Source of the DNA: Bryobacteraceae bacterium
GTDB taxonomy: Bacteria > Acidobacteriota > Terriglobia > Bryobacterales > Bryobacteraceae
Direction: 5' to 3'
Length of the DNA: 41,467 nt
Assembly: GCA_030044325.1 (NCBI GenBank)
Contig: JASHWA010000013.1
Coordinates: 1 to 41,467, forward strand
This document shows positions 1 to 39,024 of this stretch, piece after piece (the stretch's first letter is position 1; each line of letters starts with the position of its first letter). The notes under the pieces were generated by a model that was given only the letters and a program-made list of their open reading frames with translations, was not told the DNA's origin and ran no database searches. Both the position numbers and the translations under genes were made by a program.

Positions 1-604
1 CGCCGTCTTTCGGCTTCTCGCGGCGGCGACATCGCTCGCAGGCCGCGCGTGCCGACTCGGTCGATTGTTTGGCCGCGGCGAGCATACGTTCCTGCTCCTC
101 GGGCGAGAACGCCTTGCCGGGCGAAGGATCCACCCGCAGTTTCAGCGCCTTCTCATGCTTCAGCCTGGAACGGATCATTTCGCCCTGCTCGCCGCAGAGC
201 CGCAGCAGCATGGCGACTTCGTCGTTGATCGTCTTGGGACTGGCCTTCTCCTTCCGGCGTGCGGCCTGGTAGCGTTTCACCACTTCGGGTGTGATCTCCA
301 TCACCAGGTGGTTCCCGAGCCGTCGCGTCACGTGCCCGAGTGCGTATTTGGCGAAGGTATGGGACTGGTGCTTGGCTTTGTAGTCAGCTAGGAACTCATC
401 GGCCGCCAGTTGAATCGCCTTCCGCTGCTGCTGCCGGGATTCCTCTTCGACGACCTGGCTGTAGCTTTTCTCCACCCGCTCCCGCTGGCGACGCTCCTCG
501 GCGATGGCCTGCTGCTTGTTCGTCTTGCCGGTGGACCCGCGGTAGCGGTGCCCGTCCACCTGAAATACATAATGATAAAACCTGCCGTTTTTAAATATGC
601 TCAT
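1..604 (-). CDS. Tyrosine recombinase / phage-type integrase, N-terminal portion (the gene runs off the window start)
   Basis: Absent from the ORF track because it is truncated. My own reverse-strand translation from the ATG at 604 reads MSIFKNGRFYHYVFQVDGHRYRGSTGKTNKQQAIAEERRQRE...FLADYKAKHQSHTFAKYALGHVTRRLGNHLVMEITPEVVKRYQAARRKEKASPKTINDEVAMLLRL. This is the arm-type N-terminus plus SAM-like core-binding pattern of phage integrases. It lies 48 nt downstream of an excisionase-like gene. Confidence 0.8.
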   Translation of the reverse strand, partial: MSIFKNGRFYHYVFQVDGHRYRGSTGKTNKQQAIAEERRQRERVEKSYSQVVEEESRQQQRKAIQLAADEFLADYKAKHQSHTFAKYALGHVTRRLGNHLVMEITPEVVKRYQAARRKEKASPKTINDEVAMLLRLCGEQGEMIRSRLKHEKALKLRVDPSPGKAFSPEEQERMLAAAKQSTESARAACERCRRREKPKDG

Positions 605-652
605 TTAACCTGATTTGCCTCGGACACATTGGGGCTCTGTCTGTCAGAACAG

Positions 653-940
653 TCAAGCGGCATTTCGGCGGGGACGTCCCGCTCCGCGTGCGTCTTCGCT
701 GCCGCGCGTTTTGCCGCCGCCGCCGGGCTGCGATTCCAGGAACGCCGTGATGTCGCCGAGCCTGTAGCGGACGCTGGTGCCGCCGATTCGGCGGAAGGGG
801 CAGCCGATATTCAACCGCCGCTCCCGCTGCAATGTCTTCACGCTGCAGCCACGGATGGCGGCGTACACGTGTTCATCAACCCAGGCCCACGGGACAGCGG
901 GCACCTGGGTCAGATCGATGACGCGGCGGGGGTCACTCAT
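653..940 (-). CDS. Excisionase / AlpA-like helix-turn-helix DNA-binding protein
   Basis: 95 aa. The segment VDEHVYAAIRGCSVKTLQRERRLNIGCPFRRIGGTSVRYRLGDITAFLE matches the excisionase-family (MerR-superfamily) HTH pattern. The gene sits directly upstream of the integrase on the same strand. Confidence 0.7.
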   Translation of the reverse strand: MSDPRRVIDLTQVPAVPWAWVDEHVYAAIRGCSVKTLQRERRLNIGCPFRRIGGTSVRYRLGDITAFLESQPGGGGKTRGSEDARGAGRPRRNAA

Positions 941-1017
941 AGAAAATGTCCGTCATTGAACACGCTCGCAACAGACGTCGACAACGAAGCTCGATTTTAT
1001 GCGGATCGGGACGGCGG

Positions 1018-1045
1018 TCATTAATGATGGCAGGCGATAGCTATC
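1018..1045. promoter_or_regulatory. Two adjacent perfect 10-bp palindromes (TCATTAATGA at 1018-1027, GATAGCTATC at 1036-1045) in the divergent xis / 1161+ intergenic region; candidate operators
   Basis: Read directly from the sequence. They lie between divergently transcribed genes. A further CATATATG palindrome lies at 1073-1080. Confidence 0.35.
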
Positions 1046-1160
1046 AGGCCGGTAGCTCGCCTTTGGAGTAGGCATATATGTCCTCTCTTTCTGAGAAAAA
1101 CGACTTGCTTTGCTGCCGGAGAAGAGCGTCGATGGTGTGGGAAAAGGAGATCCCGAACAC

Positions 1161-1784
1161 ATGAATACCTATACGATCGACTCGGAAAACAATATAATCG
1201 CCGGGGCAGTAGCCGGCGAAAACACGCAACAGTTCGGCAGCCAGAAGGAACTGGCCAGGCTCGCGGCCGAATGGCCGATGGCACGCCTCGTCGAGGTCTG
1301 GAACGGCTTCGCGGGCGTGGTACCTTTCGACGACCTGAAACCGGTGAAGAAGTTTCAGACGCGTGATATCGGGGTATACCGAATCTGGACCGCGATCACC
1401 CGGCTGGATAAAGCTACCGCGCCGGAAACCGAGGCCGCGCCAAAACCGGAGAGCGCGCCGAAGGCCGACGCGACGTCGAGGTCCCGGCCCGCCAAGAAGG
1501 AAGCCGCCAAGAAGGAACCGGCAGCAAAACCGACGAAGGCAGCCGCCAAGAAGCGCGGGCGCGCCAGCAGCCCGAAAGCTGGCCTGGTCTACGAGCGCGA
1601 ATACAAGGGCAAGAAGTACGTTCTGCGCAGCGTCGAACACGACGGCAAAGTCATATTCAAAGTGCGCGGCGGCGAGACGTATGACAGCTTGACCGCCGCG
1701 GCTAAGGGCGTGACCGAGTACCCCAGCATCTCCGGACCGGCGTTCTGGGGGCTAGGCGCGACGGATACGGGCGCTGGCGAGTAA
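1161..1784 (+). CDS. Hypothetical protein with a DUF2924-like C-terminus and a Lys/Ala/Pro-rich linker
   Basis: ATG at 1161 is preceded by AAAGGAGA. The C-terminus YKGKKYVLRSVEHDGKVIFKVRGGETYDSLTAAAKGVTEYPSISGPAFWGL resembles the DUF2924 pattern (Y.SLSaiAr.iTG..wnGp.FFGL). The N-terminus contains LVEVWNGFAGVVPFDDLKPVKKFQTRDIGVYRIW. The track ORF begins at 1110; I prefer 1161. Confidence 0.65.
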   Translation: MNTYTIDSENNIIAGAVAGENTQQFGSQKELARLAAEWPMARLVEVWNGFAGVVPFDDLKPVKKFQTRDIGVYRIWTAITRLDKATAPETEAAPKPESAPKADATSRSRPAKKEAAKKEPAAKPTKAAAKKRGRASSPKAGLVYEREYKGKKYVLRSVEHDGKVIFKVRGGETYDSLTAAAKGVTEYPSISGPAFWGLGATDTGAGE

Positions 1785-1808
1785 CGAAGAGCCCGGCTGA
1801 CCCAGCGA

Positions 1809-1837
1809 GGCGCGGAGTTAAAGCTCCGCGCCTTTTT
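1809..1837 (+). terminator. Rho-independent terminator after the 1161..1784 gene
   Basis: GGCGCGGAG (1809-1817), a 6-nt loop, then CTCCGCGCC (1824-1832) followed by TTTTT (1833-1837). Confidence 0.65.
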
Positions 1838-1882
1838 CGTCTTGATGCGGCCAGGTCAATGGCGCTTATTCCAAGGCCGGGT

Positions 1883-1958
1883 TAACGGCATTCAACGCTC
1901 GGTCACCGGCTTTCAAGGCCAACTCACCGGCTTTCAATTGCCTTTCATCGCCGTTAAA
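1883..1958. repeat. Two 14-bp direct repeats TCACCGGCTTTCAA (1903-1916 and 1924-1937, 21-bp period) bracketed by inverted 8-mers TTAACGGC (1883-1890) and GCCGTTAA (1951-1958)
   Basis: Read directly from the sequence. Located in the convergent intergenic region between the 1161..1784 gene and the SprT-like gene. Confidence 0.5.
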
Positions 1959-1971
1959 CCGCGCCCCACCG

Positions 1972-2679
1972 CTAGTTCTTCAGTGTATTCGGAAGTTTCG
2001 CGTGCACTATGCTCTGGTTGTCGGGCGATGCGTCGACAGGCGCGCCAAACTGCCTTAAGCGCTCCATTTCCAGATGCCACGCGAAGTCCTCGTCCGTGGA
2101 TGTGCCGGTTGCAACATGCGCCATGAAATGGATCAGCAATTCGTCCATTTCGCGGAACCCTACGCAATGCGTCATGGACAAGTAAATCTCATGGGCCGCG
2201 TGATCGATGTCACTGCGCGGGAATTCGTCACAGTCCCCCGGGGCCCAAACCGTGATGTCATACACCGCGTGGACGCGGTAGTCTGGCAGAGTGCCCCCGA
2301 AGTACTGGTTGTTGAACTGGTGAAACCTTGCTTGATACCATTCCGATTGGCTGATGTTCTCGGCGCGATGAAGTTCTTTACACAAAGCGAGAACGCGCTC
2401 CTTGCCGATGGCCTTGCATAGCGCTGGTTCTTTGTCCAGGACGCATTCGGCGGTCGTGACCGGACACGTCCCGCCGTAATCCATGAGTTGGACTATCCAA
2501 TATTTAATGATCGACCTCAGCAAAGCCTCGGCGCGATCGTAGTTGACAGTTGACACTTCATCTTTCATGACGTTTTCTTTCTTGGGCGAAACACGGTTAA
2601 TCCCGTCCTTTGGACCGGCGTGTTCCGCGGTGTGACCGAGCCCGTTGACGGCGGGCCCAAAGCTGCCTTTCTGCTTCAT
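1972..2679 (-). CDS. SprT-like domain protein with a non-canonical HFMAH in place of the HExxH zinc site
   Basis: FHQFNNQYFGGTLPDYRV...IYLSM...MDELLIHFMAHVATG fits the SprT-like family pattern (f..fN..yFgG.Lp ... LlHEmaH). The start is uncertain: 2679, or the internal ATG at 2568. Confidence 0.65.
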   Translation of the reverse strand: MKQKGSFGPAVNGLGHTAEHAGPKDGINRVSPKKENVMKDEVSTVNYDRAEALLRSIIKYWIVQLMDYGGTCPVTTAECVLDKEPALCKAIGKERVLALCKELHRAENISQSEWYQARFHQFNNQYFGGTLPDYRVHAVYDITVWAPGDCDEFPRSDIDHAAHEIYLSMTHCVGFREMDELLIHFMAHVATGTSTDEDFAWHLEMERLRQFGAPVDASPDNQSIVHAKLPNTLKN

Positions 2680-2748
2680 TTTGTTTCTGGGCTTCTCTTT
2701 CTCGATTTCGACCCAACCTTCAGCGGTCGGTTATCGCGATGATTCAAT

Positions 2749-3219
2749 TCATAAACTGGACCATGGATCATCAAGTGGATTGGTCCGTTCCTTCGGCGCA
2801 ATGCTCGCCCTCATGCGGACCAGCGGGGTGCCGCCGATTTTCTCGAGCGCGGCCAGATACTCCTTCATGGCCGATTGCCTGGACCGCAATGCGGTGAGCA
2901 GCACCTCGGGTTGAAGGTTGTTTCGCTCACACATTTGATCCAGCCGCTCCAGATTGTCCTCATGGCGGGCGGCGACCGCGATGCATCGTGAATCGATCTG
3001 CTTCACCGCGATGCCGGCGGCGACCAGATCGAGCATGATCTCCATCCAGCGATCCGCGACCGCGCGGGATAGTCCGCGCGGACAAGTTGGAATGTCGCTG
3101 ATATCTATCTCGGGCGCATCGGTAGCCTCCTTTCCTAATGCCAATGCGCGTTTCTGCTTCTTCAATTCAGCTCTCCAACGCTGCGAACCGGGTGTTCGCA
3201 TCGGCCCACGTTGTCCCAT
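2749..3219 (-). CDS. Phage terminase small subunit-like protein (P27 family-like)
   Basis: IPTCPRGLSRAVADRWMEIMLDLVAAGIAVKQIDSRCIAVAARHEDNLERL ... AMKEYLAALEKIGGTPLVRMR follows the P27-type small-terminase pattern as I remember it (P.cP..L...a...W..i...L...g.l...D...l ... e.GlTP.sR.r). Not confirmed by any search. Confidence 0.55.
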   Translation of the reverse strand: MGQRGPMRTPGSQRWRAELKKQKRALALGKEATDAPEIDISDIPTCPRGLSRAVADRWMEIMLDLVAAGIAVKQIDSRCIAVAARHEDNLERLDQMCERNNLQPEVLLTALRSRQSAMKEYLAALEKIGGTPLVRMRASIAPKERTNPLDDPWSSL

Positions 3220-3748
3220 TTTTTATGAATCCTTTCTCGCCGAAGCAGGTTATTCACGTTGTTTCGGCGCTGCTGTTTCGAGTCGAAAATCGGCGATTTT
3301 CAATCGCTTCGTGTTTAAGCCGGTCAAAGGGAGGCACCTGCGAGAGGTGCACACCTTTGAGGCGAAGTTCAAAACCTGCGGCCGCGCGTAAAGAGGCAAG
3401 CCGTGGTCTGCAAGCCTTTTGGTTTCAAGATGTTGCCTACCCCGGGGGACCTGCAGGTTTACAATGCAGCCCTTCGGCAAAGTTTGTCCTTATGACGGCG
3501 GCGCTGCTCGCGGTAACAACCCAGATAAGGATACGAGGGCGGCGTCCCAGCCGTGGGCACGCCGCCACGTTCGGCCCCGTTGGCGTTTCTGCGCGCAACG
3601 TCAGCGACGTCCGCGGCGCCTGGCCCGTTCCTACCACCCTGGCCTTACCAAACGACGTCGCCCGCGTGGGCGCCAAACAGGGGATAATCATTTTGTTTCA
3701 GAGGTGTGGTGTCATGCCTCGGAGCGGAGGCCGCACGCGGCCGTGACC

Positions 3749-4600
3749 CTACTCCCCGCCTTCCGGGCGACTCTCGAACCGCGTATAGTTGGCACGGAAC
3801 ATCAGCGGCACCCTGCCGATGGGACCGTGTTTTTGTTTGGCGATCAACAGGTCGGCCAATCCCTTCACCTCTTCGCGATCCGGCTCGTACCGCTCTTCCC
3901 GGTGGATGAAGGCGACCACATCCGCGGCCTGCTCGATCGATTCGGGGAGGTCGCTTAATTGCGGCTTATGATCCCGCTGGTGGGTTTCGGTCGCGCAGCT
4001 TGACTGCGATAGGACCAGAAACGGCACGCACAGATCGCGAGCCATGCGCTTTAACCCGCGTGAGAGCGTGCTCACTTCCTGATCGCTGGTGGCGTCACTA
4101 CCGTCCTCCAGCGGCTCCGATCCCATGAGTTGCAAGTAATCGACGATCACCAGATCAAGACCACGCCGGGAACGCAGCGCGAGTAGCTTTTCGCGCATGG
4201 TTGCCAGCGTCACCCCAGGGCCATCATCGATGAACAGCGGCATCTTGCGAATTTCGTGAAGGGCTCGCTCGACCCTCGCGCGCTCTTCACCGTCAACGGC
4301 GCCCATACGGTATTTCATGTTGTCCACACGGGCGCGATTGCAGAGGATACGATCTAGGAGGGATTCGCGCGCCATCTCGAGCCCGAACACGGCGACCGAC
4401 TTGCCACTGGCCGCTACATTGGCGGCGATCTGCATGGCCAAGGCGGTCTTGCCGGCTGAGGGCCAGCCCGCCAGTAGCCACATCTCGCCGCGGTGCAGGC
4501 CGTTCGTCATCTTCTGGAGGCACGGGAATCCAGCATCAAGCCCGGCATCCCGCGAGAAGACGGACGTGCTGTTTGTGAGTGCGTATTTCTTGGATTGCAT
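3749..4600 (-). CDS. DnaB-like helicase, C-terminal (RecA-type) domain only, with degenerate late motifs
   Basis: Walker A is LAGWPSAGKTALA and Walker B is DLVIVDYLQLM. LSQSS...KPQLSDLPESIEQAADVV replaces the canonical LSDLRESGSIEQDAD. AAGGA lies upstream of the ATG at 4600. Confidence 0.85.
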   Translation of the reverse strand: MQSKKYALTNSTSVFSRDAGLDAGFPCLQKMTNGLHRGEMWLLAGWPSAGKTALAMQIAANVAASGKSVAVFGLEMARESLLDRILCNRARVDNMKYRMGAVDGEERARVERALHEIRKMPLFIDDGPGVTLATMREKLLALRSRRGLDLVIVDYLQLMGSEPLEDGSDATSDQEVSTLSRGLKRMARDLCVPFLVLSQSSCATETHQRDHKPQLSDLPESIEQAADVVAFIHREERYEPDREEVKGLADLLIAKQKHGPIGRVPLMFRANYTRFESRPEGGE

Positions 4601-4896
4601 AAATTCCTTTTCTTCCGAAGCGGATCATGGTACTGCAGTGCCGGCGATGACCTTAGTGTTGCCGAAGTCCTCTGGTCCGCTTGCGGAAACTGATCTACAA
4701 CCGGCACATGTTGCGGCTTTGCGCAAAACGCGCATTTCAGCGCGAAAAACGAAACAGGGGTAGTCAGACTACCAGCCCAACGCCGTCGAGCGTTTCTAGC
4801 GCGAGAGAAGCCTGTTTCCCGCTGAGTCGCGGGGTTTTAAGAATAGCGGCGCGGCGCGGCGCTGCTCCAGCTCCTTCGTGCTTAACACACCCTTCC

Positions 4897-6237
4897 TTAC
4901 TGCTCAGTGATGCGACAGTATGGACCTTCCAGCCGAAGTCGCACCGAAGTACCACGCACGCCGTTGCGCTGTTTCCCGATGATCAGGTCCACGACATCCT
5001 TGTCGGCGTTGTCTGCCCTGTCCCGATTTCCCGGCGCGTCCAATAGGAGAACAGTATCGGCGTCCTGTTCGAGGCTGCCCGAATCCCGTAGATCGTTGAG
5101 CTGCGGCCGGCGAGATTCGTTCTCGTTGGCCCGGTTCAACTGGTGGGCGGCGACGATCGGAATGTTGTAATCGAGCGCCGCCAGCTTGAGCCTCCGCGAG
5201 ATAGCGCTCACTTCCTGGTTGCGGTTCTCAAACCTTCCACCGGGATCGACCAGGCCGAGATAATCCACGACCAGGAGGCCCAGGTTTGGAGTGGCCGCGA
5301 CTTTCCCGATAATCGTCGAGAGCGACCGCATCTTATCGCTTATTTCCAAGGGACAAGATCCGATCCGTTCGAGCGTGTCCGCAACCTTAGCGCGCCAGTC
5401 AGCCTGAAGATCGCCGCGGACCAGAACCGCGTGGGGAATGTCGCCTTCCGCGCTCAGTATCCTCTTTAATAGGTCTGCCTGCGGCATCTCCAGGCTGGCG
5501 AAGAGTACGCGGTGATTATTCTTGGCCGCGGCGAGTGCCCATTGCAGACACGCCGTGCTCTTGCCGACGCCGGTTCGCGCTCCGACCAGCCAAAGCTCGC
5601 CCGGCCGCAGGCCGCCGTTGGTTACATCATTGAGTCGTGCCCACGGGCTTGGAATGCAGCCGCGCGGAGCGGCCAGCAGGTTATCGATACCGATCGAAAA
5701 GACGGCGTTGCCAATCGTGGGCGCGTCCGTGGCGGTGGGGGCATCGAAGGTGCCCGCAATCATCCGCAGCTCGGCCTGGGTAGCGGCAAGTTGTTCGGCA
5801 GCATCGGCACCGGATTCAACGCCGAGCCGCAGCCGCTCCGAGGCTTTCCAGATGCGGCGTTCGGCAGCCTTGGATTTCAAATCGCGAACCCACTGCTCGG
5901 GATTCGAAACATCCACCATGTTGTCGAAGGCCAGTGAGGAGAGCTGTGGCAAGCCCAGGCCCTCCGACGAACTCCGTTCGTTGAGCACGTAGCGGTAGCA
6001 CTCGGAGAGGATGGGATCGCCGCCGGATTCGTGAATCCTGCGGGCGAGATTAAAGACACGCCGGTACGACTCGACGGCAAAGCAGTCATCGCTGAGCTGG
6101 GGACCGACGCGACGGAAGAAGCCCGGCTGGACAAGGATGTTTCCTATAATCAGCCTCTCGGCTTCTGCATTGATCAGGCGCTCGGGTCCGGCGTTTTCAG
6201 CGGAGCGCTTTCCCGCTGATTGCCGCGCGGTCTTCAT
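4897..6237 (-). CDS. dnaB: Replicative DNA helicase, DnaB family (full length)
   Basis: The N-terminal DnaB domain reads AERLIIGNILVQPGFF. Walker A is GARTGVGKSTACL, Walker B is LLVVDYLGLV, and the late motif is HQLNRANE...RPQLNDLRDSGSLEQDADTVLLL. I chose the start at ATG 6237 because it overlaps the TGA of the upstream gene (ATGA). The track ORF extends to 6282. Confidence 0.9.
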   Translation of the reverse strand: MKTARQSAGKRSAENAGPERLINAEAERLIIGNILVQPGFFRRVGPQLSDDCFAVESYRRVFNLARRIHESGGDPILSECYRYVLNERSSSEGLGLPQLSSLAFDNMVDVSNPEQWVRDLKSKAAERRIWKASERLRLGVESGADAAEQLAATQAELRMIAGTFDAPTATDAPTIGNAVFSIGIDNLLAAPRGCIPSPWARLNDVTNGGLRPGELWLVGARTGVGKSTACLQWALAAAKNNHRVLFASLEMPQADLLKRILSAEGDIPHAVLVRGDLQADWRAKVADTLERIGSCPLEISDKMRSLSTIIGKVAATPNLGLLVVDYLGLVDPGGRFENRNQEVSAISRRLKLAALDYNIPIVAAHQLNRANENESRRPQLNDLRDSGSLEQDADTVLLLDAPGNRDRADNADKDVVDLIIGKQRNGVRGTSVRLRLEGPYCRITEQ

Positions 6238-7127
6238 TGAACTGGCTCGCCCCGCACAAACTGCTCGGTAGCCGGGTCCCATTTCATGCCGGTCGCGACG
6301 GAGGGAGCCTGCTCTAGAGCTGGCTGCCCTCGCTGTGCATCTTCACGGAATACTGGCGGATGGTCCAAATAAAGACCGTCGGCGATGAACTTCTCCATGC
6401 TGGGGATGAAGCGTCCACCGTCTTCCCTGAGAGAGCGCTCCCATTGATCACAGGCGAGATGGCGCCGCAATCCCTCCATCAGCCGGTCATGCTCACCCTG
6501 TTTGCCGCTAATCCTAGAAACATACGCCCGGCATGAGGATTCCACCCTGACGTTCCGCTTACATTCCGGGTAGGCTTCCCTGAACTGATCCCACGGATTG
6601 AATTGGCGAGCGTCGCTTGAATCGCGCGCTCCTGTATCCGTTTCGAGATCTGTTTCTGTTTCGGATTCGGATTCGGGGCAGCAATCGGCCGCAGGTGGCG
6701 GCAACTCGCGGCCACTTGCGGTCACCTGTCCGCACTCTGCAGTCATCTGCCCGCACTCTGCGGTCAAGTGTCCGTCAACGGCGGTCGATTCCTTCCCAGA
6801 AGGCGGCGGATACTTACTCTTCATCCGCCTCAGCCGCTGGTGAAAGTTCCACAACTCGATGTAGGGTTTGCCGCTTACCTCGTACCGCCGGATCAATCCG
6901 GCTGTCTCGCAGGCGTCCAGATAAGTGCAGATATCCTGGACGGATACTGCGTCGATCATGAGCGGATACAGGGCGGCACGGAGTAGCGCCGGGAGACCAT
7001 CGTGGCGGCCATAGTCATCGACCACATTGAACAACCTCCGGTAGAAAACTTCGCATTTCGGATCGAGCGCGATCTTATTGACACGCTCGCTCGTGAGGAT
7101 CCCCTCACGAATGACTCTACTGGGCAC
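6234..7127 (-). CDS. Putative replication initiator / replisome-organizer-like protein
   Basis: GTG start at 7127 with AAGGA upstream. The N-terminus REGILTSERVNKIALDPKCEVFYRRLFNVVDDYGRHDG...YPL...AGLIRRYEVSGKPYIELWNFHQRLR resembles prophage replication and winged-helix proteins I recall. It is translationally coupled to dnaB. The central linker carries 7-aa repeats and an acidic ESESETETDLETD tract. Coding confidence is higher than function confidence. Confidence 0.6.
   Translation of the reverse strand: MPSRVIREGILTSERVNKIALDPKCEVFYRRLFNVVDDYGRHDGLPALLRAALYPLMIDAVSVQDICTYLDACETAGLIRRYEVSGKPYIELWNFHQRLRRMKSKYPPPSGKESTAVDGHLTAECGQMTAECGQVTASGRELPPPAADCCPESESETETDLETDTGARDSSDARQFNPWDQFREAYPECKRNVRVESSCRAYVSRISGKQGEHDRLMEGLRRHLACDQWERSLREDGGRFIPSMEKFIADGLYLDHPPVFREDAQRGQPALEQAPSVATGMKWDPATEQFVRGEPVQ
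6705..6788. repeat. Four tandem 21-bp repeats (iteron-like) inside the initiator-like gene
   Basis: The units are CTCGCGGCCACTTGCGGTCAC, CTGTCCGCACTCTGCAGTCAT, CTGCCCGCACTCTGCGGTCAA and GTGTCCGTCAACGGCGGTCGA. They encode the ECGQ(M/V)TA heptad repeats. GATTCG repeats and a T-rich stretch follow at about 6640-6680. Confidence 0.6.
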
Positions 7128-7856
7128 TGGGCCCGTCCTTTCTGCCCATCACCTAAACATCAAAGAACGGCGACCGGCGAAGCGCCGCAGCCGCCCGGGA
7201 TGGGGCAACACGCAAAAGTAAATTTTGGGATGGGTTACGAAACGAATCGATGCAGAGTGTATTGCCATGGCTCCTCAACTGCCGTGACCATCGATCGAAA
7301 AAGCAAGGTTCGTCCTACAGCGTCCGCAATGAGGTTAGGAATTTCTCAAACCGACGTGCGAGTTGTACACTACTCCGCTTGTGCGCGCGATTAATTAACT
7401 CGCGGTATCGCGGGCGGCGCGCTGCATCCAACATGCATCTGCCGCTCTGTGACTGCGAATTTCCCGGTATCACCGGTCCTCCTCGAAAGCTGCCGAAGGC
7501 GCCGTAAAATGCCCGGCGCCGTTCAGTTGGCGAGTCGATGGGTACAGTAATTCGGGGCGTGCGCCGACTGCCGACCACGCGGTGGTCGATCGCAAAAAGC
7601 AAGATCCGCATCGTGGCTGACAATGCGGGCCCGATTTTCATCGAGAGCTTTCGGCGACGGTTAAGCCGAAGATCTTGACTACGGAATGTGTCCACCGCGT
7701 GACAACGTGGACATGCGTGCCTGGCGTGCTTGGCGCAATGCGGCAAGGTCGGTATACGGGAACCGCTTGTGCGCTTGCCCGCGCGCGGCGACCCGCGGGC
7801 GCGGCACTGCGTAAGCGGCCAGTAACCGGCGAGCCCCGGTATCGGCGTAGTGCCTA

Positions 7857-8357
7857 TCAAACGGCAGAATCTGCCGTTTTAGTAGGCACCATGACTGACG
7901 CTTCTGATGCGACCTCCTCGGCTTTCTTCTTGTGTTTGGCCATGACAGCAAGAACTTCTTCTCGGGTAGGGCCTACAGGATCAGGATCTCCGGGGTGGTG
8001 CCGGTAGAGGCGCACTTGGTACAGCATCTGCTCGGTTTGCTGGTATGCATTCCATTCCGCGCTACCCTTGGCGAATAGCGGACGGGGAACCCTCGCGGCA
8101 AGCTTCTGCTCAACCTGCCGCCGCACCTCGGGTGCGACCTGCATTTCATCTAATCGCCAATCCACGCGCCGCCAGAAATACTCTTGGTGCGCAATCGCAT
8201 CGATGTGTTCCTCTCTGATGTGGGCCAGATGCGCCAACACCTTCTGCCGAATCTTGCCGTTGACACGATGGCTTTCCACCAGCACGGCATAGAAGGCGCG
8301 CCAGCTTCGCCGCCAGCTTTGGTGTCGTAGAACGCGGCTTTTCCAACGCACGAACAT
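7857..8357 (-). CDS. Hypothetical protein (166 aa)
   Basis: ATG at 8357 is preceded by GGAGG with about 8 nt spacing. The sequence MFVRWKSRVLRHQSW...AVLVESHRVNGKIRQKVLAHLAHIREEH...YFWRRVDWRLDEM recalls a recurrent uncharacterised family near mobile elements. The track ORF starting at 8561 is probably too long. Confidence 0.6.
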   Translation of the reverse strand: MFVRWKSRVLRHQSWRRSWRAFYAVLVESHRVNGKIRQKVLAHLAHIREEHIDAIAHQEYFWRRVDWRLDEMQVAPEVRRQVEQKLAARVPRPLFAKGSAEWNAYQQTEQMLYQVRLYRHHPGDPDPVGPTREEVLAVMAKHKKKAEEVASEASVMVPTKTADSAV

Positions 8358-8897
8358 GTCGATAACCTCCTTGTCCTTTCGTGTCCGTCGATCAGTATGA
8401 AAAGGCGCGCATCGCGACGAACGCGAAACGATGCACTGCCTTGCTGGGACGCAGCCGGACCATGGCTCCTGGGGATAGATAAGAAGAGCCACAGAATCCA
8501 GCAAAGTCAATACGGTTGAGCGAGTCGCAATCGAGTTCCGTGTCGAGCCCCGCAGGTGCATGGAAGCCCTGAGTGCCTTTTTGTGCGACCTCTTTGACCG
8601 TGGTCATGAGTCGCGCCGCATATGGGTCCGCGTGGCGCAACCGAAATTGAGCCGAAATCAAAGCGCAGACCAATCTGCCGAAGGTGTTGACAGGCAACAC
8701 CTGGACGGCGATAAGCGCAACGAGCGCCTCGTCAGGACGCCGGATGTTTCTATCCGCGCCGCGTTTCTGGTGTTCCCCGAGCCCATACCTCCCGTCCCCG
8801 CCTAAACATAAGAACTCAACCGCCGTATGAAGTTGCTGCGTTGCTTAATGAACTTTAATGTTTATGGCTCCGCCCGCAATCTACTTCGGGGTTATAC

Positions 8898-11800
8898 TTG
8901 ACACGCCACATAGCGCCGCTGCTCGCCATGTTCCGCCTACCTTTCGATTTCGATTATTCCGATGGTCCCGTCCGCCATCTCATCAGGCCGCTCCTTGATG
9001 GGCAGGCCATCGACGCCCCGATCGACCAAAAATTGCTTGAATCCATCATGAGCGTCCGTGCTGGCCCGACGTTCTGCATCCAGTGCTGGGGCCTTGGGCC
9101 GGGCACTGTGTTCTTGGAATGCCCAACGCGGGAACCGTCGGTCCCAGTCATGGATGTGCCTCGAGATAACGGGGACGGACCCGAAGAGATACTGCGCTGG
9201 CAGATGAGGCAGCTCCATCGACTCGGATATACAGGGCAGCAGCTCGAACGCGCGATCCATGATTTACTCCGTCCGCCGAAACATCCCGACGCGCAGAGCG
9301 GTCCCGTACTGCTCACTAGGGCCTATTTGACCGGATCGAGATGGAGTGACGAATGGTCCCCACAAACAAGAGTGCTGCCGCAGACCACTGCGAAACCCGA
9401 CAGGGCCACCATCATCTGGTTGCCGTGCTCTGACGGCACGCTCGAATGGAGAAGAACGGATACTTTTATTCGGCTCACCGGCGACGCCGCGCGAAAGCCA
9501 AGCGGCCCTTGTCAAAAAGATGGGTTTGAGCGCGCCCGCGAGGAGGCGCGAAAGGAACGGTCCGTTGTGGCCTCGAAGGACCTGCCTGTCGATGTTGATG
9601 GCTGGGATGAATTTGCACAGTATAGCTATGGTCGCGACATCCCAAAGCAGCTCCTTGATCCGTCGCTCGATGGGATGTTCGACGGCTACGACGCGCAACA
9701 CGGAGAACGATTCGGCCCAGAGTGGAAACGCAAACGACTGGCGTGGCGGAAATCCGCAGTAGTGGACTGCTCTCCGGGCACGACCACCTTCGGCAGCACG
9801 AGGCCGCTGTGCCCCACGAGCGTTCCCCTGAATCGAGGCCACCAACTGCCGGATGGACCCGCGTTTCATGCAATAGAGCGCGAGTTCCACACCAAGCTCA
9901 ATAATTTGCTGCTGGCGCTTGACCTGTATGGTTTCCCGGTTCGGGAGTCGCTCGGTTACTTACTACAGCGGCCCGACGAATTGTTCCGGGCATGGAGGTC
10001 TGCCTGGCGCAAAAAAAAGCGACGCATGCCGGAATTTGAGGAGCGCTGGAGGCAAGCGCCGCGGATTGGTCGCAAGCTAAACATCGAGGCTGAAACGAAC
10101 GCGCTGGCGCTCGCTGCCGCGAATCACTGCGATGAGAGGGTCGCGCTGGCGCTCGCCGGCACGACCGATTCACTGAACGGGGCTATCGATGCGTCCGTTG
10201 CGTTGATCGGTCTCGCGAGCGGCAGAGCCACAATCAACCGGACGCAGATTCAGATCGACTCCGAGCAGATGCTGATCCTCGCTGGCGGCGGGACGGCGGA
10301 CCTGAAGGTCCAGCGCGGCTATGCCGGGACCACCGCGGCAGCGCACTCAAGCGGCGCGACAGTGAAGGTCCCCGGCGGTGCTGAGGTGCCCCTGGGCGAC
10401 CGCGTCTATCTCTCGATGGATGAGATGGTCCGCGATCTCATCAAGATGACAACAGGACGCAAACCTGGGCCCCAGGCACGCGAACGGATAGCTTCCCGGG
10501 GCCGCGGGACGTCGTTAAGGGTACGGCCAGATGGCCGTCCATTGATCAGCGATGTTGCTCGTTTGGATAAACGACTCCGAGACGACCTTGCGCCTGTGTT
10601 GGAGGCGATCAGGCGCGATGCCTTCCTGCCCGACGGGGAAGTCCATTCCGTCCCGCATTGGCTATTCGATTTCGGCAAGCAAGTCCTGGCCTGTATTGGT
10701 CGGATCGACCTAGCCGCGCGCGCCAGAGTCGCGCCTTTCGATCCAAGGTATAAAAAGATCGCGGCAGCCGCCGAACGAAACCGAGTAGATCAGCCCACCG
10801 TAGAGGTGTGGCGTGACATGATCGACCGATGCACCGACCCAGAACACCCAGAATACGGGAACTACGGAGGACGCGGAGTAACGGTCTATCGGCCCTGGAT
10901 GGACCATTGCAACACCAGAAATTGGCGGATTTCTTTTGACCGGTTTACGGCCGACGTTGGGCCGCGACCTCAAACAAGTCCTACACTCACGCGCATAGCG
11001 GAAAATTACTTCTCCTTCCGACCCGCGAAGGTGGGCTACGAACTTGTCCGGCGAGACGAAAACGATAATTACGATCCATTGAACGTCAGATGGGCGCCGC
11101 CCGCGCCACCGGAAACCGCCGAATTGAATCAGAAATTGGCGGATGAAGATGCAGAAGCCTGGGCCCGTGATGGGGAGCATTGCCCCGACGTGAAGGGTCT
11201 TTTGCGGCTCGCGAAGTCCGTGGCGCGCAGCATCACGGCAACAAGACTCCGCGCGGAAATACGTTACAGGTTCGACAGGTTGGTTTCCGAAAGGCCAGCG
11301 TTTCGCGGCAGGGCCGAAAGCTGTACTGCTGTCCCGGTGGACCAGGAGCGAGCGATTACACTCACAGCGTCCGGCCGCGTCATGGCAAGGGCGGCTGGCG
11401 CTGTAATTAAGGAGAAGGGACCGGGTCTGTTGAAAGTATCCCGACCGCGCGGAATCGACGGAAGCGAACTGAAAGTAATCTTCACTCCGTCGTGGGTCGC
11501 GATAACGAATAACCAGATGTGGATCGGAGTGTACAACTCGCTGGGCGAGGGGAATGTTGTAAAGGTATTCCGGTCCCGCGAGGAGGCTCGTGATTTTGCC
11601 AAGAAGGGTTGGCGTAAGGGTGTCAGGAAAACAAAGGCAGCGAGAGACGTCGGCGATGACCCGAAGCAGCACCATCGAAAAAAGGGGATAGCCTTCCGCG
11701 ACGAGGACCTTGAGCAATATGCGTGTGAAGTGTATCTCAGCCAGGCGCGCACAAGAAACCTCCCTGAATACGCTCTTCGACGCTTGATGCGCGAGCGCCT

Positions 11801-14456
11801 GGGTGTTCAAGCGGTGTGGCGGACTAAGACGGGAGCCATAGACGATCCCGGTACGGTCGGCCTTCCTGCCTGGCTAAGCGAGCGGCTGACCCCGGAAGAA
11901 GAAGCGGCCGAGGCGGATATCAGGCCCTTATCCACGACCGACCCGCTTAATGGTTCGCCGAGACCGGTCCATGAACCCCCGACGTTCGCTCCTTGGCCCT
12001 ACGGCGCTACCACGGAGAAACAGAGAGACCGGGGCGGAGAGGACCACGGCGCGGAAGACGCCGAAGACGCCAAAGACCAAGACGGTGCGCACCCAGATCA
12101 CGAGCCAATAATTGATGTCGAGCTACTACTCACCAAGTTGACTGATCGTGAAAAACGAGTATTAGACCGCACCTTGTCAGGCTCCACACAAGAAGAAATC
12201 GGCAAGGAAATTGGCAGGGACCCAACCCGCGTAACAGCCGATCTCAACAGCATCACAGAGAAGTGCGACGATCTGTCGGTCCAGCGGGTTCATGCCTGCT
12301 TCAGCATTGATCCCGATGGATCGGTCGTAGAGGTTCTTGATCCGAATGGATCGGGCGTGGAGTTTCCCGCCTATGCGCCAGTCGCGCTGATTCCCCTGTT
12401 TTTCGAGACAGCGGACTCCCCTCCAAAGCGCATACCGTATCCGCCCGAAGACCTAGCCCGCATCGATGCACTTCGCGAGCGCTGCGGGGAACGACATCGC
12501 GATGAAAACTTATGGCGCAAGCTGCTGAGGAGCCTTGATCGTGAGTGGACAACCCGCATACTTTCCGTGGCCGAGGTGGCCGCCGAAGACGCGCTTGCTC
12601 CTGATTGGATGCTGCTGGCGAGGATTGCTCCCGAGGATTTATGGCATAAAATACTCACCGTGCTTCAGCCGTGGCGTGATGATCCGCGCTGCGATGCTCG
12701 GAAACTTTCTGTCTTGGCCTCGGTGATGCGCAAGGCCGCCGGGGAAGCGGCGCCAGCCAGCAAGACTGACGAGACAGCGATCCCTCTTGGCGCAACGGAA
12801 GAAGAGAAGAAAGAGATAACCCATCGGGCATCGAACGACCGCCTCCATGCAGCATTATTTCGGCAGTCGATTCTGGCCGCCGGCCCGCAGAGGCGCGACG
12901 TCCGCCCGCCGATTGATCGACATGAATGTCCGAGCGGTCCAGCGGGATCAACCCGGCCGTGTACACCCGCGGCTAGCCCGTCTGCCCTCGCGCAATGCGG
13001 GCGATCCACGCTGCCCCGGAATCCGGCGAGGTTTGAACCAGAGCGCACACCCGCCCCATACGTGAGCCGATCAGCGGCGCGAGAGGCGCGATTCGGCAAG
13101 GACGTTCCGCAAATTGAATCCAGCCACATGGAGTTTGAACGCGCTCCGCTGGCGCTGTACCCACTACAGCCCGCGCCATACATGTTCGCGAGGTTCGCGC
13201 CCTATATGTTCGTGAGATGCGCACCCTACATGGGGTCCTTCTGTTCATGGACCGCTTGGGACAAACAGTGGAACGGGAGAAAGCCCAAGAAGGGTGTGTC
13301 CCTGTATCCAATTGCCCAGCCCAAGCCGGGCGAACAAGGATTCTGGTTAAGCCACTTTCCGCCAGACGGCCGTGACGTCGTCTGCTTCTCCGATGCTCTA
13401 AAACATCATGCGTACAGGCTTAAGCACAGTGAGTTTCCATCAGACAGCAAGCTGCTTCAGGACCTCGTGGATCGTCGCCCGCGGTGGGTGTGTACGGGCC
13501 AACCTGATAGTTGTCTCGAAGACCGGCACGGCCCCTGGTTTCCAGCCCCCCTTCCTGGGCGAGATCGCAAGCCGATCTTCAGCGCCCGAAGGCGACTTTG
13601 GAAAGCGCTCGTCCGCTGCATTACAGTAGCGGAGCAATTTAACCGCTCATATTATCCGTGGCTATTTCATCAGGGGCAGAAGGTGTCCTCGACATGGCCT
13701 TTCAGTGGGGAGCCCAGAGCCAAAGAACGCAAGCGGAAGCGCAAGCGCGCTATTCCGCGGCCCGACCCAAGGGCGCTCCGGCCGCTGGTTCGTGTCTGCG
13801 AAGCGCCAAAGAAAGGCTACGCCATAGAGCCCATAGGCGACGACTGGGTGGTATTTTACCCAGGCGGAAATCGTGCAACCTTTCTGAGCAGACCAGATGC
13901 CATCGAGTTTAGCCGGAACCTGACTCCAAGCAAGGAGGCGGAAACGGGGCGGTTGGTGTGGGCTGCGAAATCCGAATCCTTGATCGGCGGTACTTGTCAA
14001 GCATACGGATTCTCCACCGAAGCGGCGGCTCGCGAATGGGCCGCCGCGCCAAAATATCGGAGCGGGTACAGGGCTGATCCTGAAGCCGAAGAACGCGATA
14101 AATGGATCGCGAAGCTCACTGCCTACAAGGCCTCCTATGCTGCTTACGCCAACCTTGCCGAAGGTGATCCCGGTGCCGAACGCGCCTATGCTGACGCCTA
14201 TCACGCCTTCAGGGAATACGCCCGCATCGATCTTGAGATTCATCAAGTCAAGCATCACAAGCCGAGCAAAATCCCGCGGTGGGCGGACGGCGACGAGAGG
14301 CATCGCAGGGGCCGCGACCCGTTTCCTTTGGTTGAACCCACCTTCGCGGCGCACAAGGAGTGGTGGAAGTCGTCAAACATGCTCGCAGGCGCGGAGGCAC
14401 GCCGGAGGGCACATCTCACCCCATCGGATAATTGGCTGTTTTTCATGCCCAGGTAG
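8898..14456 (+). CDS. Giant orphan ORF (1852 codons from TTG 8898; first ATG at 8928) with embedded DNA-binding-like modules and no recognisable enzymatic motif
   Basis: 5.5 kb in one frame without a stop. At about 10800-11105, VEVWRDMIDRCTDPEHPEYGNYGGRGVTVYRPW...FDRFTADVGPRP...LVRRDENDNYDPLNVRWAP matches the W..M..RC...Y..YGGRGI.V...W..F..F..DmGprP...DR.d..g.Y.P.N.RWA module seen in phage HNH/NUMOD-like DNA-binding proteins. At about 12118-12270, LLTKLTDREKRVLDRTLSGSTQEEIGKEIGRDPTRVTADLNSI looks like a sigma-70 region 4 / LuxR-type HTH. I found no Walker A motif. Confidence 0.6.
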   Translation: MTRHIAPLLAMFRLPFDFDYSDGPVRHLIRPLLDGQAIDAPIDQKLLESIMSVRAGPTFCIQCWGLGPGTVFLECPTREPSVPVMDVPRDNGDGPEEILRWQMRQLHRLGYTGQQLERAIHDLLRPPKHPDAQSGPVLLTRAYLTGSRWSDEWSPQTRVLPQTTAKPDRATIIWLPCSDGTLEWRRTDTFIRLTGDAARKPSGPCQKDGFERAREEARKERSVVASKDLPVDVDGWDEFAQYSYGRDIPKQLLDPSLDGMFDGYDAQHGERFGPEWKRKRLAWRKSAVVDCSPGTTTFGSTRPLCPTSVPLNRGHQLPDGPAFHAIEREFHTKLNNLLLALDLYGFPVRESLGYLLQRPDELFRAWRSAWRKKKRRMPEFEERWRQAPRIGRKLNIEAETNALALAAANHCDERVALALAGTTDSLNGAIDASVALIGLASGRATINRTQIQIDSEQMLILAGGGTADLKVQRGYAGTTAAAHSSGATVKVPGGAEVPLGDRVYLSMDEMVRDLIKMTTGRKPGPQARERIASRGRGTSLRVRPDGRPLISDVARLDKRLRDDLAPVLEAIRRDAFLPDGEVHSVPHWLFDFGKQVLACIGRIDLAARARVAPFDPRYKKIAAAAERNRVDQPTVEVWRDMIDRCTDPEHPEYGNYGGRGVTVYRPWMDHCNTRNWRISFDRFTADVGPRPQTSPTLTRIAENYFSFRPAKVGYELVRRDENDNYDPLNVRWAPPAPPETAELNQKLADEDAEAWARDGEHCPDVKGLLRLAKSVARSITATRLRAEIRYRFDRLVSERPAFRGRAESCTAVPVDQERAITLTASGRVMARAAGAVIKEKGPGLLKVSRPRGIDGSELKVIFTPSWVAITNNQMWIGVYNSLGEGNVVKVFRSREEARDFAKKGWRKGVRKTKAARDVGDDPKQHHRKKGIAFRDEDLEQYACEVYLSQARTRNLPEYALRRLMRERLGVQAVWRTKTGAIDDPGTVGLPAWLSERLTPEEEAAEADIRPLSTTDPLNGSPRPVHEPPTFAPWPYGATTEKQRDRGGEDHGAEDAEDAKDQDGAHPDHEPIIDVELLLTKLTDREKRVLDRTLSGSTQEEIGKEIGRDPTRVTADLNSITEKCDDLSVQRVHACFSIDPDGSVVEVLDPNGSGVEFPAYAPVALIPLFFETADSPPKRIPYPPEDLARIDALRERCGERHRDENLWRKLLRSLDREWTTRILSVAEVAAEDALAPDWMLLARIAPEDLWHKILTVLQPWRDDPRCDARKLSVLASVMRKAAGEAAPASKTDETAIPLGATEEEKKEITHRASNDRLHAALFRQSILAAGPQRRDVRPPIDRHECPSGPAGSTRPCTPAASPSALAQCGRSTLPRNPARFEPERTPAPYVSRSAAREARFGKDVPQIESSHMEFERAPLALYPLQPAPYMFARFAPYMFVRCAPYMGSFCSWTAWDKQWNGRKPKKGVSLYPIAQPKPGEQGFWLSHFPPDGRDVVCFSDALKHHAYRLKHSEFPSDSKLLQDLVDRRPRWVCTGQPDSCLEDRHGPWFPAPLPGRDRKPIFSARRRLWKALVRCITVAEQFNRSYYPWLFHQGQKVSSTWPFSGEPRAKERKRKRKRAIPRPDPRALRPLVRVCEAPKKGYAIEPIGDDWVVFYPGGNRATFLSRPDAIEFSRNLTPSKEAETGRLVWAAKSESLIGGTCQAYGFSTEAAAREWAAAPKYRSGYRADPEAEERDKWIAKLTAYKASYAAYANLAEGDPGAERAYADAYHAFREYARIDLEIHQVKHHKPSKIPRWADGDERHRRGRDPFPLVEPTFAAHKEWWKSSNMLAGAEARRRAHLTPSDNWLFFMPR
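13172..13234. repeat. Three tandem imperfect repeats GCGCC(A/C)TA(C/T)ATGTTCG(C/T)GAG inside the giant ORF
   Basis: GCGCCATACATGTTCGCGAGGTTC, GCGCCCTATATGTTCGTGAGAT and GCGCACCCTACATGGGG. These translate as APYMFARF, APYMFVRC and APYMGSF. Each unit contains the ACATGT palindrome or a near variant. Confidence 0.55.
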
Positions 14457-14893
14457 CCGGGATTCCGAATCTTAGCAGTTCACGCCGTTAGCGTCGTCCC
14501 GCCACTTCGCTACGATGCCTTCGAGATCGTGCTCGCAGGCCCGGCGGAACAGGGCGCGGCCGTCCCGATCGAAGTGGTGGGCCAGCAGAATGCGCGGATG
14601 GTCGCGGACAACACGCTTCAGGATCTCCTTCCGGTTCATCAGCGGCAGCGCCCGCAGATCGTGGCCGCCATGCATGAGGCAGTCGAAGGCGTAGAATACC
14701 GGCTCGCCTCGGCGCCGCAGCAGCTCGTAGAACTGCGGCCTGCCGCTCGCGTCGAGCACAACAATCTCGCCATCGAGGACCGCCTCACGGTTCAGCGACC
14801 GGAGCGATTCCCGAAGCACGGCGAAACTCTTGTACGGATTGCCACGCCGGGAAATGAGCCGCACGTCGGCTCCGGTCACGATCCAGTTTTACT
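14453..14893 (-). pseudogene. ATP-dependent DNA ligase (LigD-type ligase domain) remnant A, lacking both the N-terminus and the C-terminus
   Basis: ADVRLISRRGNPYKSF...EAVLDGEIVVLDASGRPQFYELLRRRGEPVFYAFDCLMHGGHDLRALPLMNRKEILKRVV...LEGIVAKWRDD. There is no KxDG adenylation motif, and stop codons sit just upstream (S*E*NWIVTG). After a frameshift the reading continues as KIRNPGY down to 14453. Confidence 0.7.
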
Positions 14894-15104
14894 CTCAGCT
14901 AGCGAACGTTATTGTGGTGGTCAGGTTCCCGTTTGGCATACGAAGGCTCATCGTAAACTGGCGCACCGTGCACGTCTACCGGACTGACTCGGTCTCTTCT
15001 TCCGGCGTCGGGCGCACTGTCGAGTCTTTTTTCCACAAGAGGCAACGACGCGCGTAATCCTTTTACTACTTTTGATCGACAAAATCGGGAGGAGGGGAAG
15101 GCAG

Positions 15105-18037: not shown

Positions 18038-18104
18038 GAGCGGATACTATGATAACGATGGCGGTTTCTTTTATATCTGAGCACGGTGATATGCTGCGAA
18101 TCAG

Positions 18105-18509
18105 ATGCCAACCGAACATATCGTAGCTTTGCTCATCGCCGAACGTGATCGCTTGTCTCGCGCGATCGATGCCCTACACCCACCATCGCGTCGCCGCGGT
18201 CGACGGCCAGCAAAGGCCACAAACGCCGCTCCTGCTACTGCGGGGCCACCCAGGAAACGCAGGCTCACTGCCGCCGGACGAAGGGCGATCGCAGCGGCAG
18301 CGAGGCGCAGATGGACCGCGATTGAAGCTGCCAAAGCTCCCCAGGCTCCCGCCGTTGCTTCGGCCGCAAAGCCCACGCCGAAAAAACGCCGGATCAGCGC
18401 TGCTGCACGCAAGGCGATGGGGGATGCCGCGAGGCGGCGGTGGGCTGCGGCCAAAGCCGCGAAGTCGGCACCGGCGGCCAAGAAAGGGGCGGGAACCAAA
18501 GCGGCATAG
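18105..18509 (+). CDS. Small basic Ala/Lys/Arg-rich protein; the only intact full-length member of the dispersed family (copy A)
   Basis: MPTEHIVALLIAERDRLSRAIDAL followed by two internal repeats, KRRLTAAGRRAIAAAARRRWTAIEAAKA and KKRRISAAARKAMGDAARRRWAAAKAAKS, ending AAKKGAGTKAA*. The upstream sequence TTTCTTTTATATCTGAGCACGGTGATATGCT is shared with copy B. Confidence 0.55.
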   Translation: MPTEHIVALLIAERDRLSRAIDALHPPSRRRGRRPAKATNAAPATAGPPRKRRLTAAGRRAIAAAARRRWTAIEAAKAPQAPAVASAAKPTPKKRRISAAARKAMGDAARRRWAAAKAAKSAPAAKKGAGTKAA

Positions 18510-35200: not shown

Positions 35201-35304
35201 TCATTCTGGGCCGCCCGAAGCCGATGGCCGAGACAACATTCGATATTTCCTGGTCGGCGATGACCGGCGCTGGTGCTCGTGGAAATGGTAAGCTCATCTC
35301 CAAA

Positions 35305-38945: not shown

Positions 38946-39024
38946 CGCCTCCGGTTAGGTCATGTGTCTTTGATTCGAAGGTCACGCGATTGGCCTTTGA
39001 CGTGTCCATGCCCTCGATATTTTC

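Follow-up and report, generated by a model that had tools for sequence, protein, structure and literature searches.

Does a soil acidobacterium carry a phage satellite at the left end of contig JASHWA010000013.1, or does this DNA hold what is left of a once complete phage? The contig, from the Bryobacteraceae assembly GCA_030044325.1, was analysed over its entire 41,467 bp (here called the window), and the element in question takes up the left 14.5 kb. The gene order is int, which is cut by the contig end, followed by xis, a DUF2924 gene, a gene for a 235-residue orphan protein, the small terminase gene terS, a DnaB_C-only helicase gene, dnaB, the initiator gene rep, and then an open reading frame (ORF) of 1,842 amino acids (aa). 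A preliminary description of this DNA had proposed a satellite of the phage-inducible chromosomal island (PICI) type. The gene-content signature behind that proposal holds, whereas satellite status itself would have to be concluded from that signature, and the strict PICI core is incomplete. We tentatively favor the interpretation of the approximately 15-kb element, integrated in a Bryobacteraceae-like acidobacterium (a soil bacterium), as a phage satellite of the Staphylococcus aureus pathogenicity island (SaPI)/PICI type, and give this interpretation slightly less than an even chance. It is supported by the co-occurrence of int and xis, a phage-type replicon, and an intact terS gene without virion genes.

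Small terminase and replication genes

The satellite interpretation depends mainly on the following features.

2749 to 3219, minus strand: terS, stand-alone small terminase subunit (TerS), 156 aa; full-length match to phrog_83 "terminase small subunit" (E=8.5e-5)
3749 to 4600, minus strand: short hexameric-helicase-type ATPase with DnaB_C only, 283 aa; PF03796 (E=4e-75, positions 1 to 254 of 255) and phrog_243 (E=1.5e-35)
4897 to 6282, minus strand: full-length DnaB-type replicative helicase, 461 aa; DnaB_C (E=5.5e-57), DnaB N-domain (E=2.8e-6), and phrog_19 (E=4.4e-80)
6234 to 7127, minus strand: phage-type replication initiator Rep, 297 aa; phrog_5810 (E=7e-16), phrog_2149, phrog_1408, phrog_16167, and phrog_270
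6700 to 6785, no strand: putative origin with three to four imperfect iterons of 21 bp in the part of rep that encodes the linker between its domains, beside a T-rich stretch at 6640 to 6680

The product of 2749 to 3219 is, judged by its relatives, a genuine TerS, and the genomic context of the homologues is decisive here. Homologues with 43 to 69% identity are located directly upstream of the large terminase subunit (TerL) and portal genes in six phage contigs (L005, L008, L010, L012, L013, and L015; related loci are given L numbers throughout). This synteny holds wherever a phage contig has enough flanking DNA, with a TerL composed of ATPase and nuclease. Thirteen terS homologues were found, which form a tight family together with relatives from IMG/VR, the closest being the L013 copy with 69% identity. 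An alignment of 10 family members has 24 invariant columns, and the window copy, which is full length, keeps all 24. The ratio of nonsynonymous to synonymous substitution rates (dN/dS) is 0.15 for the comparison with the nearest phage copy and 0.13 to 0.33 over the phage copies, values that are not branch-specific and for which dS is near saturation. The window terS is the sole intact member of the family found here with a replication module on one side and an orphan gene on the other rather than before TerL.

The preliminary description had called this gene P27-like. The small terminase part of that name stands, given the PHROG 83 match and the position of the homologues in the six phage contigs, but membership in the P27 family is not supported, as neither the Pfam model (PF05119) nor the NCBIfam model (TIGR01558) matches the protein at an E value of 0.01 or below. 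A fold search in BFVD returned matches including TerS and P27-family TerS proteins at E values of about 0.1, with P27-annotated entries at 0.24 to 1.6, which is suggestive only. Profile and fold searches in the PDB with the all-helical protein were uninformative, and a tblastn search of terS against GenBank phages gave no match.

The replication genes were also recognized from the letters alone, as a DnaB-C paralog, DnaB, and an initiator with internal iterons, and Pfam, PHROGs, and Tandem Repeats Finder bear out all three. The five PHROGs matched by Rep are all families of "replication initiation protein". Tandem Repeats Finder reports a period of 21 with 3.0 copies (score 82) at 6713 to 6774, which we extended by eye to 6700 to 6785. 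The iterons encode a TAECGQ(M/V) peptide repeat in the Rep linker, with conserved N- and C-terminal regions on either side, suggesting a layout of the lambda O type with the origin inside the initiator gene, where Rep may bind to the iterons. With full-length DnaB and DnaB_C matches and iterons in rep, the replicon looks intact. A total of 621 Rep homologues were found, of which those in L096 to L099 sit in small islands of the order HTH_17-Rep-...-int.

Pfam and PHROGs searches of all sizeable ORFs in the 41.5 kb detected no gene for TerL, portal, capsid, tail, or lysis. When all ORFs of 80 aa or more from the related phages and islands were compared with the full contig by tblastn, there was likewise no TerL, portal, or capsid fragment, and the only matches were terS, DnaB, part of Rep, int, xis, and DUF2924. 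The lack of virion genes noticed initially is confirmed. Of the genes that mark a Caudoviricetes prophage as complete or nearly so (TerL, portal, major capsid, tail, and lysis), none was detected in the window. A PADLOC search for defence systems was negative.

While the gene content and the origin-like repeats can be read from the DNA, induction, pac recognition, and packaging are steps that we infer. Once a helper phage resembling L013, L008, or L015 infects the cell or is induced, Xis and Int would excise the island. Rep would bind the iterons in its own gene and load DnaB, and the island would be amplified as concatemers. The island TerS would bind a pac site on the island DNA, and its conserved C-terminal region (EYLAALEKIGGTPLVRMRA) would recruit the TerL of the helper. 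Headful packaging into helper capsids would follow, with roughly three copies of the 15-kb element per head of 40 to 45 kb. The 1,842-aa orphan with its DNA-binding-type domains would be accessory cargo, possibly serving helper interference or regulation.

Integration module, orphan genes, and limits of the element

The remaining features of the element and the first genes to its right are as follows.

1 to 604, minus strand: N-terminal 201 codons of a tyrosine integrase, with the ATG at 604; phrog_1 (E=4.9e-11) and Int_N (E=1.9e-5)
653 to 940, minus strand: excisionase/AlpA-like small DNA-binding protein, 95 aa; phrog_66 "excisionase and transcriptional regulator" (E=5.7e-5)
1161 to 1784, plus strand: DUF2924-domain protein, 207 aa; PF11149 (33.2 bits, cutoff 31.2)
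1807 to 1834, plus strand: strong stem-loop terminator with 12 pairs and a T-run, in the interval where the DUF2924 and 235-aa genes converge
1972 to 2679, minus strand: 235-aa orphan downstream of terS; coding-like, with G+C contents of.58/.39/.69 at codon positions 1, 2, and 3 (GC1/2/3)
7857 to 8561, minus strand: 234-aa orphan, first gene of the leftward operon; GC1/2/3 of.64/.45/.62; the true start may be internal
8928 to 14456, plus strand: giant orphan ORF of 1,842 aa, divergent from the replication operon; the frame is open from 8898, with the ATG at 8928
14472 to 14879, minus strand: host-like, doubly truncated fragment of an ATP-dependent DNA ligase; PF01068 (positions 39 to 186 of 204, E=6.9e-15) and phrog_114
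15072 to 17297: secreted host protein with the TIGR03437 Soli_cterm domain ("Solibacter C-terminal domain", NCBIfam match), following the ligase fragment

The N-terminal 201 residues of the integrase are 88% identical to a full 403-aa Phage_integrase (PF00589) protein in L001, a Bryobacteraceae metagenome-assembled genome (MAG) that holds the closest relative with a complete integrase; the catalytic C-terminal half falls off the contig. Integrases whose N-terminal halves are 84 to 90% identical at the protein level, mostly with an adjacent xis, occur on ten metagenome contigs, in addition to the MAG copy with 88%; of the int-xis module, 10 copies are full or nearly so, and remnants come on top of these. 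The xis gene is kept beside int in L001 and in L100 to L112 with 58 to 87% identity, and the DUF2924 protein shares 71% identity with its counterparts in L001 and L100. At the nucleotide level, at least eight int-xis copies in related metagenomes show about 78 to 83% identity. The break of the contig inside int was probably caused by such repeats.

Among the copies in L100 to L112 (soil metagenomes Ga03350xx) and L001, the neighbours, the downstream flanks, and the C-terminal tails of int all vary. The neighbours include a UvrD-like helicase in L001 and L100 and a host kinase beside xis in L102. The int-xis(-DUF2924) group therefore behaves, as far as these loci indicate, as a shared integration cassette joined to different neighbours at different chromosomal sites, and the varied int tails would fit either an att site overlapping the 3' end of int or a promiscuous integration cassette. 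In L101 and L102, int has a premature stop at codon 85. More degraded int remnants have 76 to 78% identity, and remnants are present in L002, L110, L111, and L113. In L113 (1699 to 3666), an integrase fragment (aa 147 to 201) lies about 1 kb from a homologue of an unannotated 282-aa ORF of the window (39025 to 39873), with 71% nucleotide identity over 855 nucleotides (nt) (window 39019 to 39869); in the window, this ORF is 25 kb away from the element.

The term integrase-bounded, used in the preliminary description, is an inference, as the contig stops within int at residue 201, leaving attL and the left flank outside the sequence. It had also been proposed to look for virion genes beyond the integrase. 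In L001, host genes are found there (HPP, molybdopterin oxidoreductase, Crp, and ScdA) and none for a virion, while the window itself ends inside int. In this relative, int stands at an element edge, with the host genes following it directly. We rejected a circular contig, as the C-terminal half of int was not found at the right end. No tRNA, tmRNA, or Rfam family was detected anywhere in the contig. A comparison of the L001 int 3' end and flank with the window for an att core gave matches of 10 to 13 nt only, which is chance level, and no common core was derivable from the aligned int ends of eight relatives, since their C-terminal tails differ and their flanks are unrelated.

At the right-hand side, the limit of the element is most likely at about 14.46 kb, based on a jump in GC3 and on host paralogues from 14.47 kb on. 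GC3 is 0.82 in the ligase fragment against 0.64 in the giant ORF, and the Soli_cterm gene is followed by a member of a family of paralogues of about 150 aa which recurs beside the modules of extracytoplasmic function (ECF) sigma factors and Ser/Thr kinases on this contig. An end near 14450 had been predicted, and the start of host-like genes at about 14.47 kb agrees with it. The Soli_cterm protein, together with the relatives of the element in a Bryobacteraceae MAG, also agrees with the initial assignment to an Acidobacteria-like host. Near the int remnants of L002, L110, and L111, at a distance of about 0.9 kb, there is an 84-nt piece homologous to the ligase fragment (9043 to 9124 in L002). 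We did not adopt the ligase gene as the integration target, as the relative orientation is inverted and the match comprises just 84 nt.

The minus-strand run of the element comprises, from right to left, the 234-aa orphan, a doubtful ORF, Rep, DnaB, the DnaB_C ATPase, terS, and the 235-aa orphan, and it is convergent with the DUF2924 gene. The single hypothetical gene first described between Rep and the giant ORF is actually two ORFs, of which 7315 to 7860 looks non-protein-like; the other, the 234-aa orphan, has no family match in Pfam, PHROGs, NCBIfam, or PADLOC. The 235-aa protein has no match in Pfam, PHROGs, NCBIfam, PADLOC, PDB, or IMG/VR. Its earlier label, SprT-like, finds no profile or PDB support, and the single-sequence AlphaFold2 model (pLDDT 42) is too poor to search with. 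The gaps at 3220 to 3748, 4601 to 4896, and 7128 to 7856 contain only Arg/Pro/Ser-rich, non-protein-like translations with weak codon periodicity, and could represent regulatory DNA, small genes that escaped recognition, or genes in decay.

The giant ORF of the preliminary description is a real open frame: there are no internal stops, compared with 30 to 71 in each of the other five frames, and codon periodicity extends throughout. On the stop counts, we rejected a chance ORF or an antisense shadow, and the antisense ORFs have no Pfam match. Searches in 5.8 billion clustered proteins and 1.8 billion representatives gave relatives for two short segments only, at the level of domains. The first, at aa 405 to 490 approximately, is an unannotated repeat-type domain whose relatives carry no useful Pfam annotation and which has no match among 50,697 GenBank phages. 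The second, at about aa 590 to 735, is a DNA-binding-type domain annotated as "HNH/AP2" (a PHROG domain match); among the GenBank phages, only aa 505 to 723 were matched, mostly aa 588 to 723. A weak helix-turn-helix (HTH) resembling sigma-70 region 4 is located at about aa 1055 to 1124. The protein shows no Pfam or PADLOC family and no virion-protein signature, and on comparison it is unrelated to the 1,283-aa tape-measure-domain protein of the Rep island L096. Within the ORF, three tandem 24-bp repeats at 13172 to 13232 (GCGCC[A/C]TA[C/T]ATGTTCG[C/T]GAG...) encode APYMF(A/V)R repeats in the segment with the least protein-like composition. They may serve as a binding site for a protein (pac, par, or a second origin) or have no meaning.

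The host part of the contig encodes four Ser/Thr kinases with tetratricopeptide repeats (TPR) and at least two ECF sigma factors. A paralogous segment of about 250 nt, found at 18081 to 18335, 27959 to 28201, 35058 to 35275, and 39912 to 40139, is 69 to 71% identical to one segment of L102 and belongs to ORFs of about 150 aa among the ECF-sigma and Ser/Thr-kinase(TPR) genes. The 268-aa ORF at 26805 to 27611 (minus strand) covers only an internal part of the profiles for TonB-dependent receptors or outer membrane beta-barrel proteins (266 to 451 of 838) and is probably a gene fragment.

Satellite, prophage remnant, or plasmid-like island

Related loci include helper-type phages, small islands, and decay products. 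On the phage side, L005 carries genes for TerS, TerL, portal, protease, capsid, and tail, TerL and portal genes are present in L008, L010, and L012, and L013 and L015 likewise have them behind terS. These phages are candidate helpers and the likely source of the window terS; the TerL proteins of L013, L008, and L015 share 79 to 84% identity among themselves.

The small islands lend support to the satellite interpretation in the case of L003/L004 and L098/L099. An island of about 10.3 kb, found in two samples (L003 and L004; L003 3929 to 14257, JGI Ga0643757_0000122), is bounded by a 28-nt direct repeat with 89% identity between the copies, the second of which lies inside the 3' end of int. It contains genes for a Rep-like protein, a TerS (44% identity in L003), a 90-aa protein, an HK97-type major capsid protein, and an integrase, without TerL or portal. 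The islands of L098 and L099 are about 8 kb long, have the order HTH_17-Rep-...-DUF5681-...-int, and are inserted between host chemotaxis and metabolic genes. L096 (Bryobacteraceae MAG JBDKSR010000439, 343 to 12256) carries HTH_17, Rep, a 1,283-aa TMP_3 protein, and two integrases. By their gene content, these loci show that this part of the tree has small islands with Rep and/or terS that lack a full virion module.

Several observations weigh against a satellite. The architecture is a singleton, with no second copy of the Rep-DnaB-terS-giant-ORF arrangement in the genome, metagenome, and IMG/VR collections: Rep, DnaB, terS, and the giant ORF accompany the same int-xis module in none of 14 metagenome loci, Rep and the 235-aa gene were searched for in IMG/VR and neither was found, Rep yielded nothing in metagenome contigs, and DnaB_C retrieved only generic phage helicases from IMG/VR. 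The leftward operon has a coding density of only about 75%, with gaps of 530, 296, and 730 nt holding junk-like ORFs, and int is incomplete on the contig (201 codons). We recognised neither a primase-replicase of the PICI type nor a gene for capsid-size redirection, a repressor resembling Stl, or an interference gene. The window terS is conserved with phage TerS over its whole length, and there is therefore no sign of an altered pac specificity. Finally, relatives are in clear decay, among them L002 and L101/L102 with their damaged int genes: L006 has terS and a truncated, ATPase-only TerL followed by Rep, DnaB, and int, and in L007, terS lacks 29 N-terminal residues and stands beside a frameshifted DUF2924.

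The best of the alternatives is a defective prophage, in which a temperate phage of the order Rep-DnaB-terS-terL-...-xis-int lost its whole morphogenesis and lysis block through one deletion between terS and xis-int, leaving a cryptic island that can no longer be mobilised, with terS as a relic. We consider this a serious rival, although less likely than the satellite. All of the closest terS homologues are part of complete packaging modules of phages, L006 and L007 represent intermediate decay in the same lineage, and remnants of int are numerous in the same populations, where one int also has a premature stop; the low coding density, the junk-like ORFs in the gaps, and the singleton architecture fit as well. 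However, no fragment of a structural gene is left, the recognisable genes are all full length and coding-like, and terS is under purifying selection, although this is not specific to its branch. The convergent junction of terS and DUF2924 also speaks against the deletion, as it recurs in L007 in the same arrangement as in the window with about 60% identity. Since the L007 junction is only this similar, the terL-less arrangement would be old and not the product of a fresh deletion. Even as a deletion remnant, the element would be an example of a satellite-like gene set produced from a prophage in a single step.

An integrative, autonomously replicating island, plasmid-like or a "hitcher", that captured a phage replication-terS fragment is unlikely. 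Here, TerS would be a non-packaging protein or a DNA-binding regulator. The int-xis(-DUF2924) backbone does occur with quite different neighbours (the UvrD-like helicase of L001/L100 and the kinase of L102), and a module boundary at about 1.8 to 1.97 kb is marked by the strong terminator together with the convergent gene orientation. Against this, Rep matches phage-type profiles only and has no relative among 72,556 plasmids, no Pfam family for a relaxase, coupling protein, type IV secretion system, partition, or mobilisation gene was found on the ORFs in 1 to 19.3 kb, and terS retains the C-terminal segment common to the whole phage TerS family. The integrative plasmid-like replicon offered as the alternative in the preliminary description is weakened accordingly, because Rep is of the phage type without a plasmid match and mobilisation genes are lacking.

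An assembly chimera, joining a repeat copy of int-xis-DUF2924 to an unrelated phage-derived segment, is very improbable: the contig ends within int and int-xis repeats at about 78 to 83% nucleotide identity are a classic cause of breaks and misjoins, but L007 independently has terS next to DUF2924 in the same convergent arrangement, and the composition shows no break at 1.8 to 2.0 kb beyond the usual variation from gene to gene.

Comparison with known systems

Known satellites (P4-like, PICI, capsid-forming PICI [cfPICI], PICI-like elements [PLE], actinobacterial, and marine) have nearly all been found in Proteobacteria, Firmicutes, and a small number of other cultured groups, and our literature search for phage satellites or PICI in Acidobacteria or Acidobacteriota gave nothing relevant. 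A satellite in the window would bring the biology of helpers and their parasites into a soil phylum that is among the most abundant and the hardest to work with, with a different replication solution (an initiator and DnaB rather than Pri-Rep) and with concrete helper candidates, since helper-type terS-TerL phages occur in the same metagenome collections. A more far-reaching idea, which we regard as possible though less probable than not, is that the element is the first of an Acidobacteriota satellite lineage, with a shared int-xis-DUF2924 cassette, a lambda-O-type Rep and two DnaB-class helicases, a TerS from HK97-like helpers, and a giant orphan DNA-binding protein acting on the helper through interference, regulation, or packaging control. 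In that case, the element, together with the terS and capsid islands L003/L004 and the Rep-only islands L096 to L099, would point to a diverse, undescribed satellite community in soil Acidobacteria.

The HK97-like temperate siphoviruses of soil Acidobacteria (L005, L008, L010, L012, L013, and L015) share the terS family with the element at 43 to 69% identity, but their contigs go on with TerL, portal, protease, and capsid (in L005 also tail), of which the window has none. The initiator gene resembles the lambda O/ori system in holding an iteron origin in the linker between its domains and in being followed by a helicase gene. In contrast to lambda, Rep has no significant match to the lambda O Pfam families, and the helicase gene of the element is for a DnaB-type protein where lambda has a P-type loader.

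The cfPICI and the L003/L004 islands are, like the element, small integrase-bounded islands with a Rep-like protein, and the L003 island has a TerS of the same family (44% identity) and a partly shared Rep. They differ in their virion genes, as cfPICI carry capsid, portal, protease, and head-tail connector, L003 has a capsid only, and the window element has none of these.

The closest comparison is with the PICI, whose core components have been defined for SatelliteFinder (PMC10085698). In that work, more than 99.9% of the detected PICI were from Proteobacteria or Firmicutes (PMC10085698). The element resembles them in having an integrase at one end with a small Xis/AlpA-type gene beside it, and in bringing its own origin-bearing replication module and its own small terminase while lacking tail, holin, portal, and TerL. 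It is also like them in size, with about 15 kb or about one third of a siphovirus genome, and in the accessory gene(s) distal to int. From the core list, we found the integrase (201 residues), the small terminase, and none of the "forbidden" tail, holin, portal, or connector genes. For the regulator (alpA, merR, or stl), the only candidate is the 95-aa protein, with its phrog_66 match at E=5.7e-5 and no Pfam HTH_17 match. No primase domain as in the PICI Pri-Rep was found, and the initiator, DnaB, and the DnaB_C ATPase supply an analogous function. For capsid morphogenesis, no ORF has a head-related match in Pfam or PHROGs, although the orphan ORFs could hide an analogue. Strict PICI membership fails because a Pri-Rep homologue and a capsid-morphogenesis gene are absent.

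The differences concern replication, regulation, orientation, and host. PICI use Pri-Rep, whereas the element uses a lambda-O-like initiator with an internal origin, DnaB, and a DnaB_C ATPase, and no cpm/ppi-like capsid-morphogenesis gene or master repressor of the Stl/MerR type was recognised in it. Its replication and terS genes read towards int and not away from it, an orphan ORF of 5.5 kb is present, its host belongs to the phylum Acidobacteriota, and the element is known from sequence alone. At best, the element works like a PICI, of which it would be a distinct variant.

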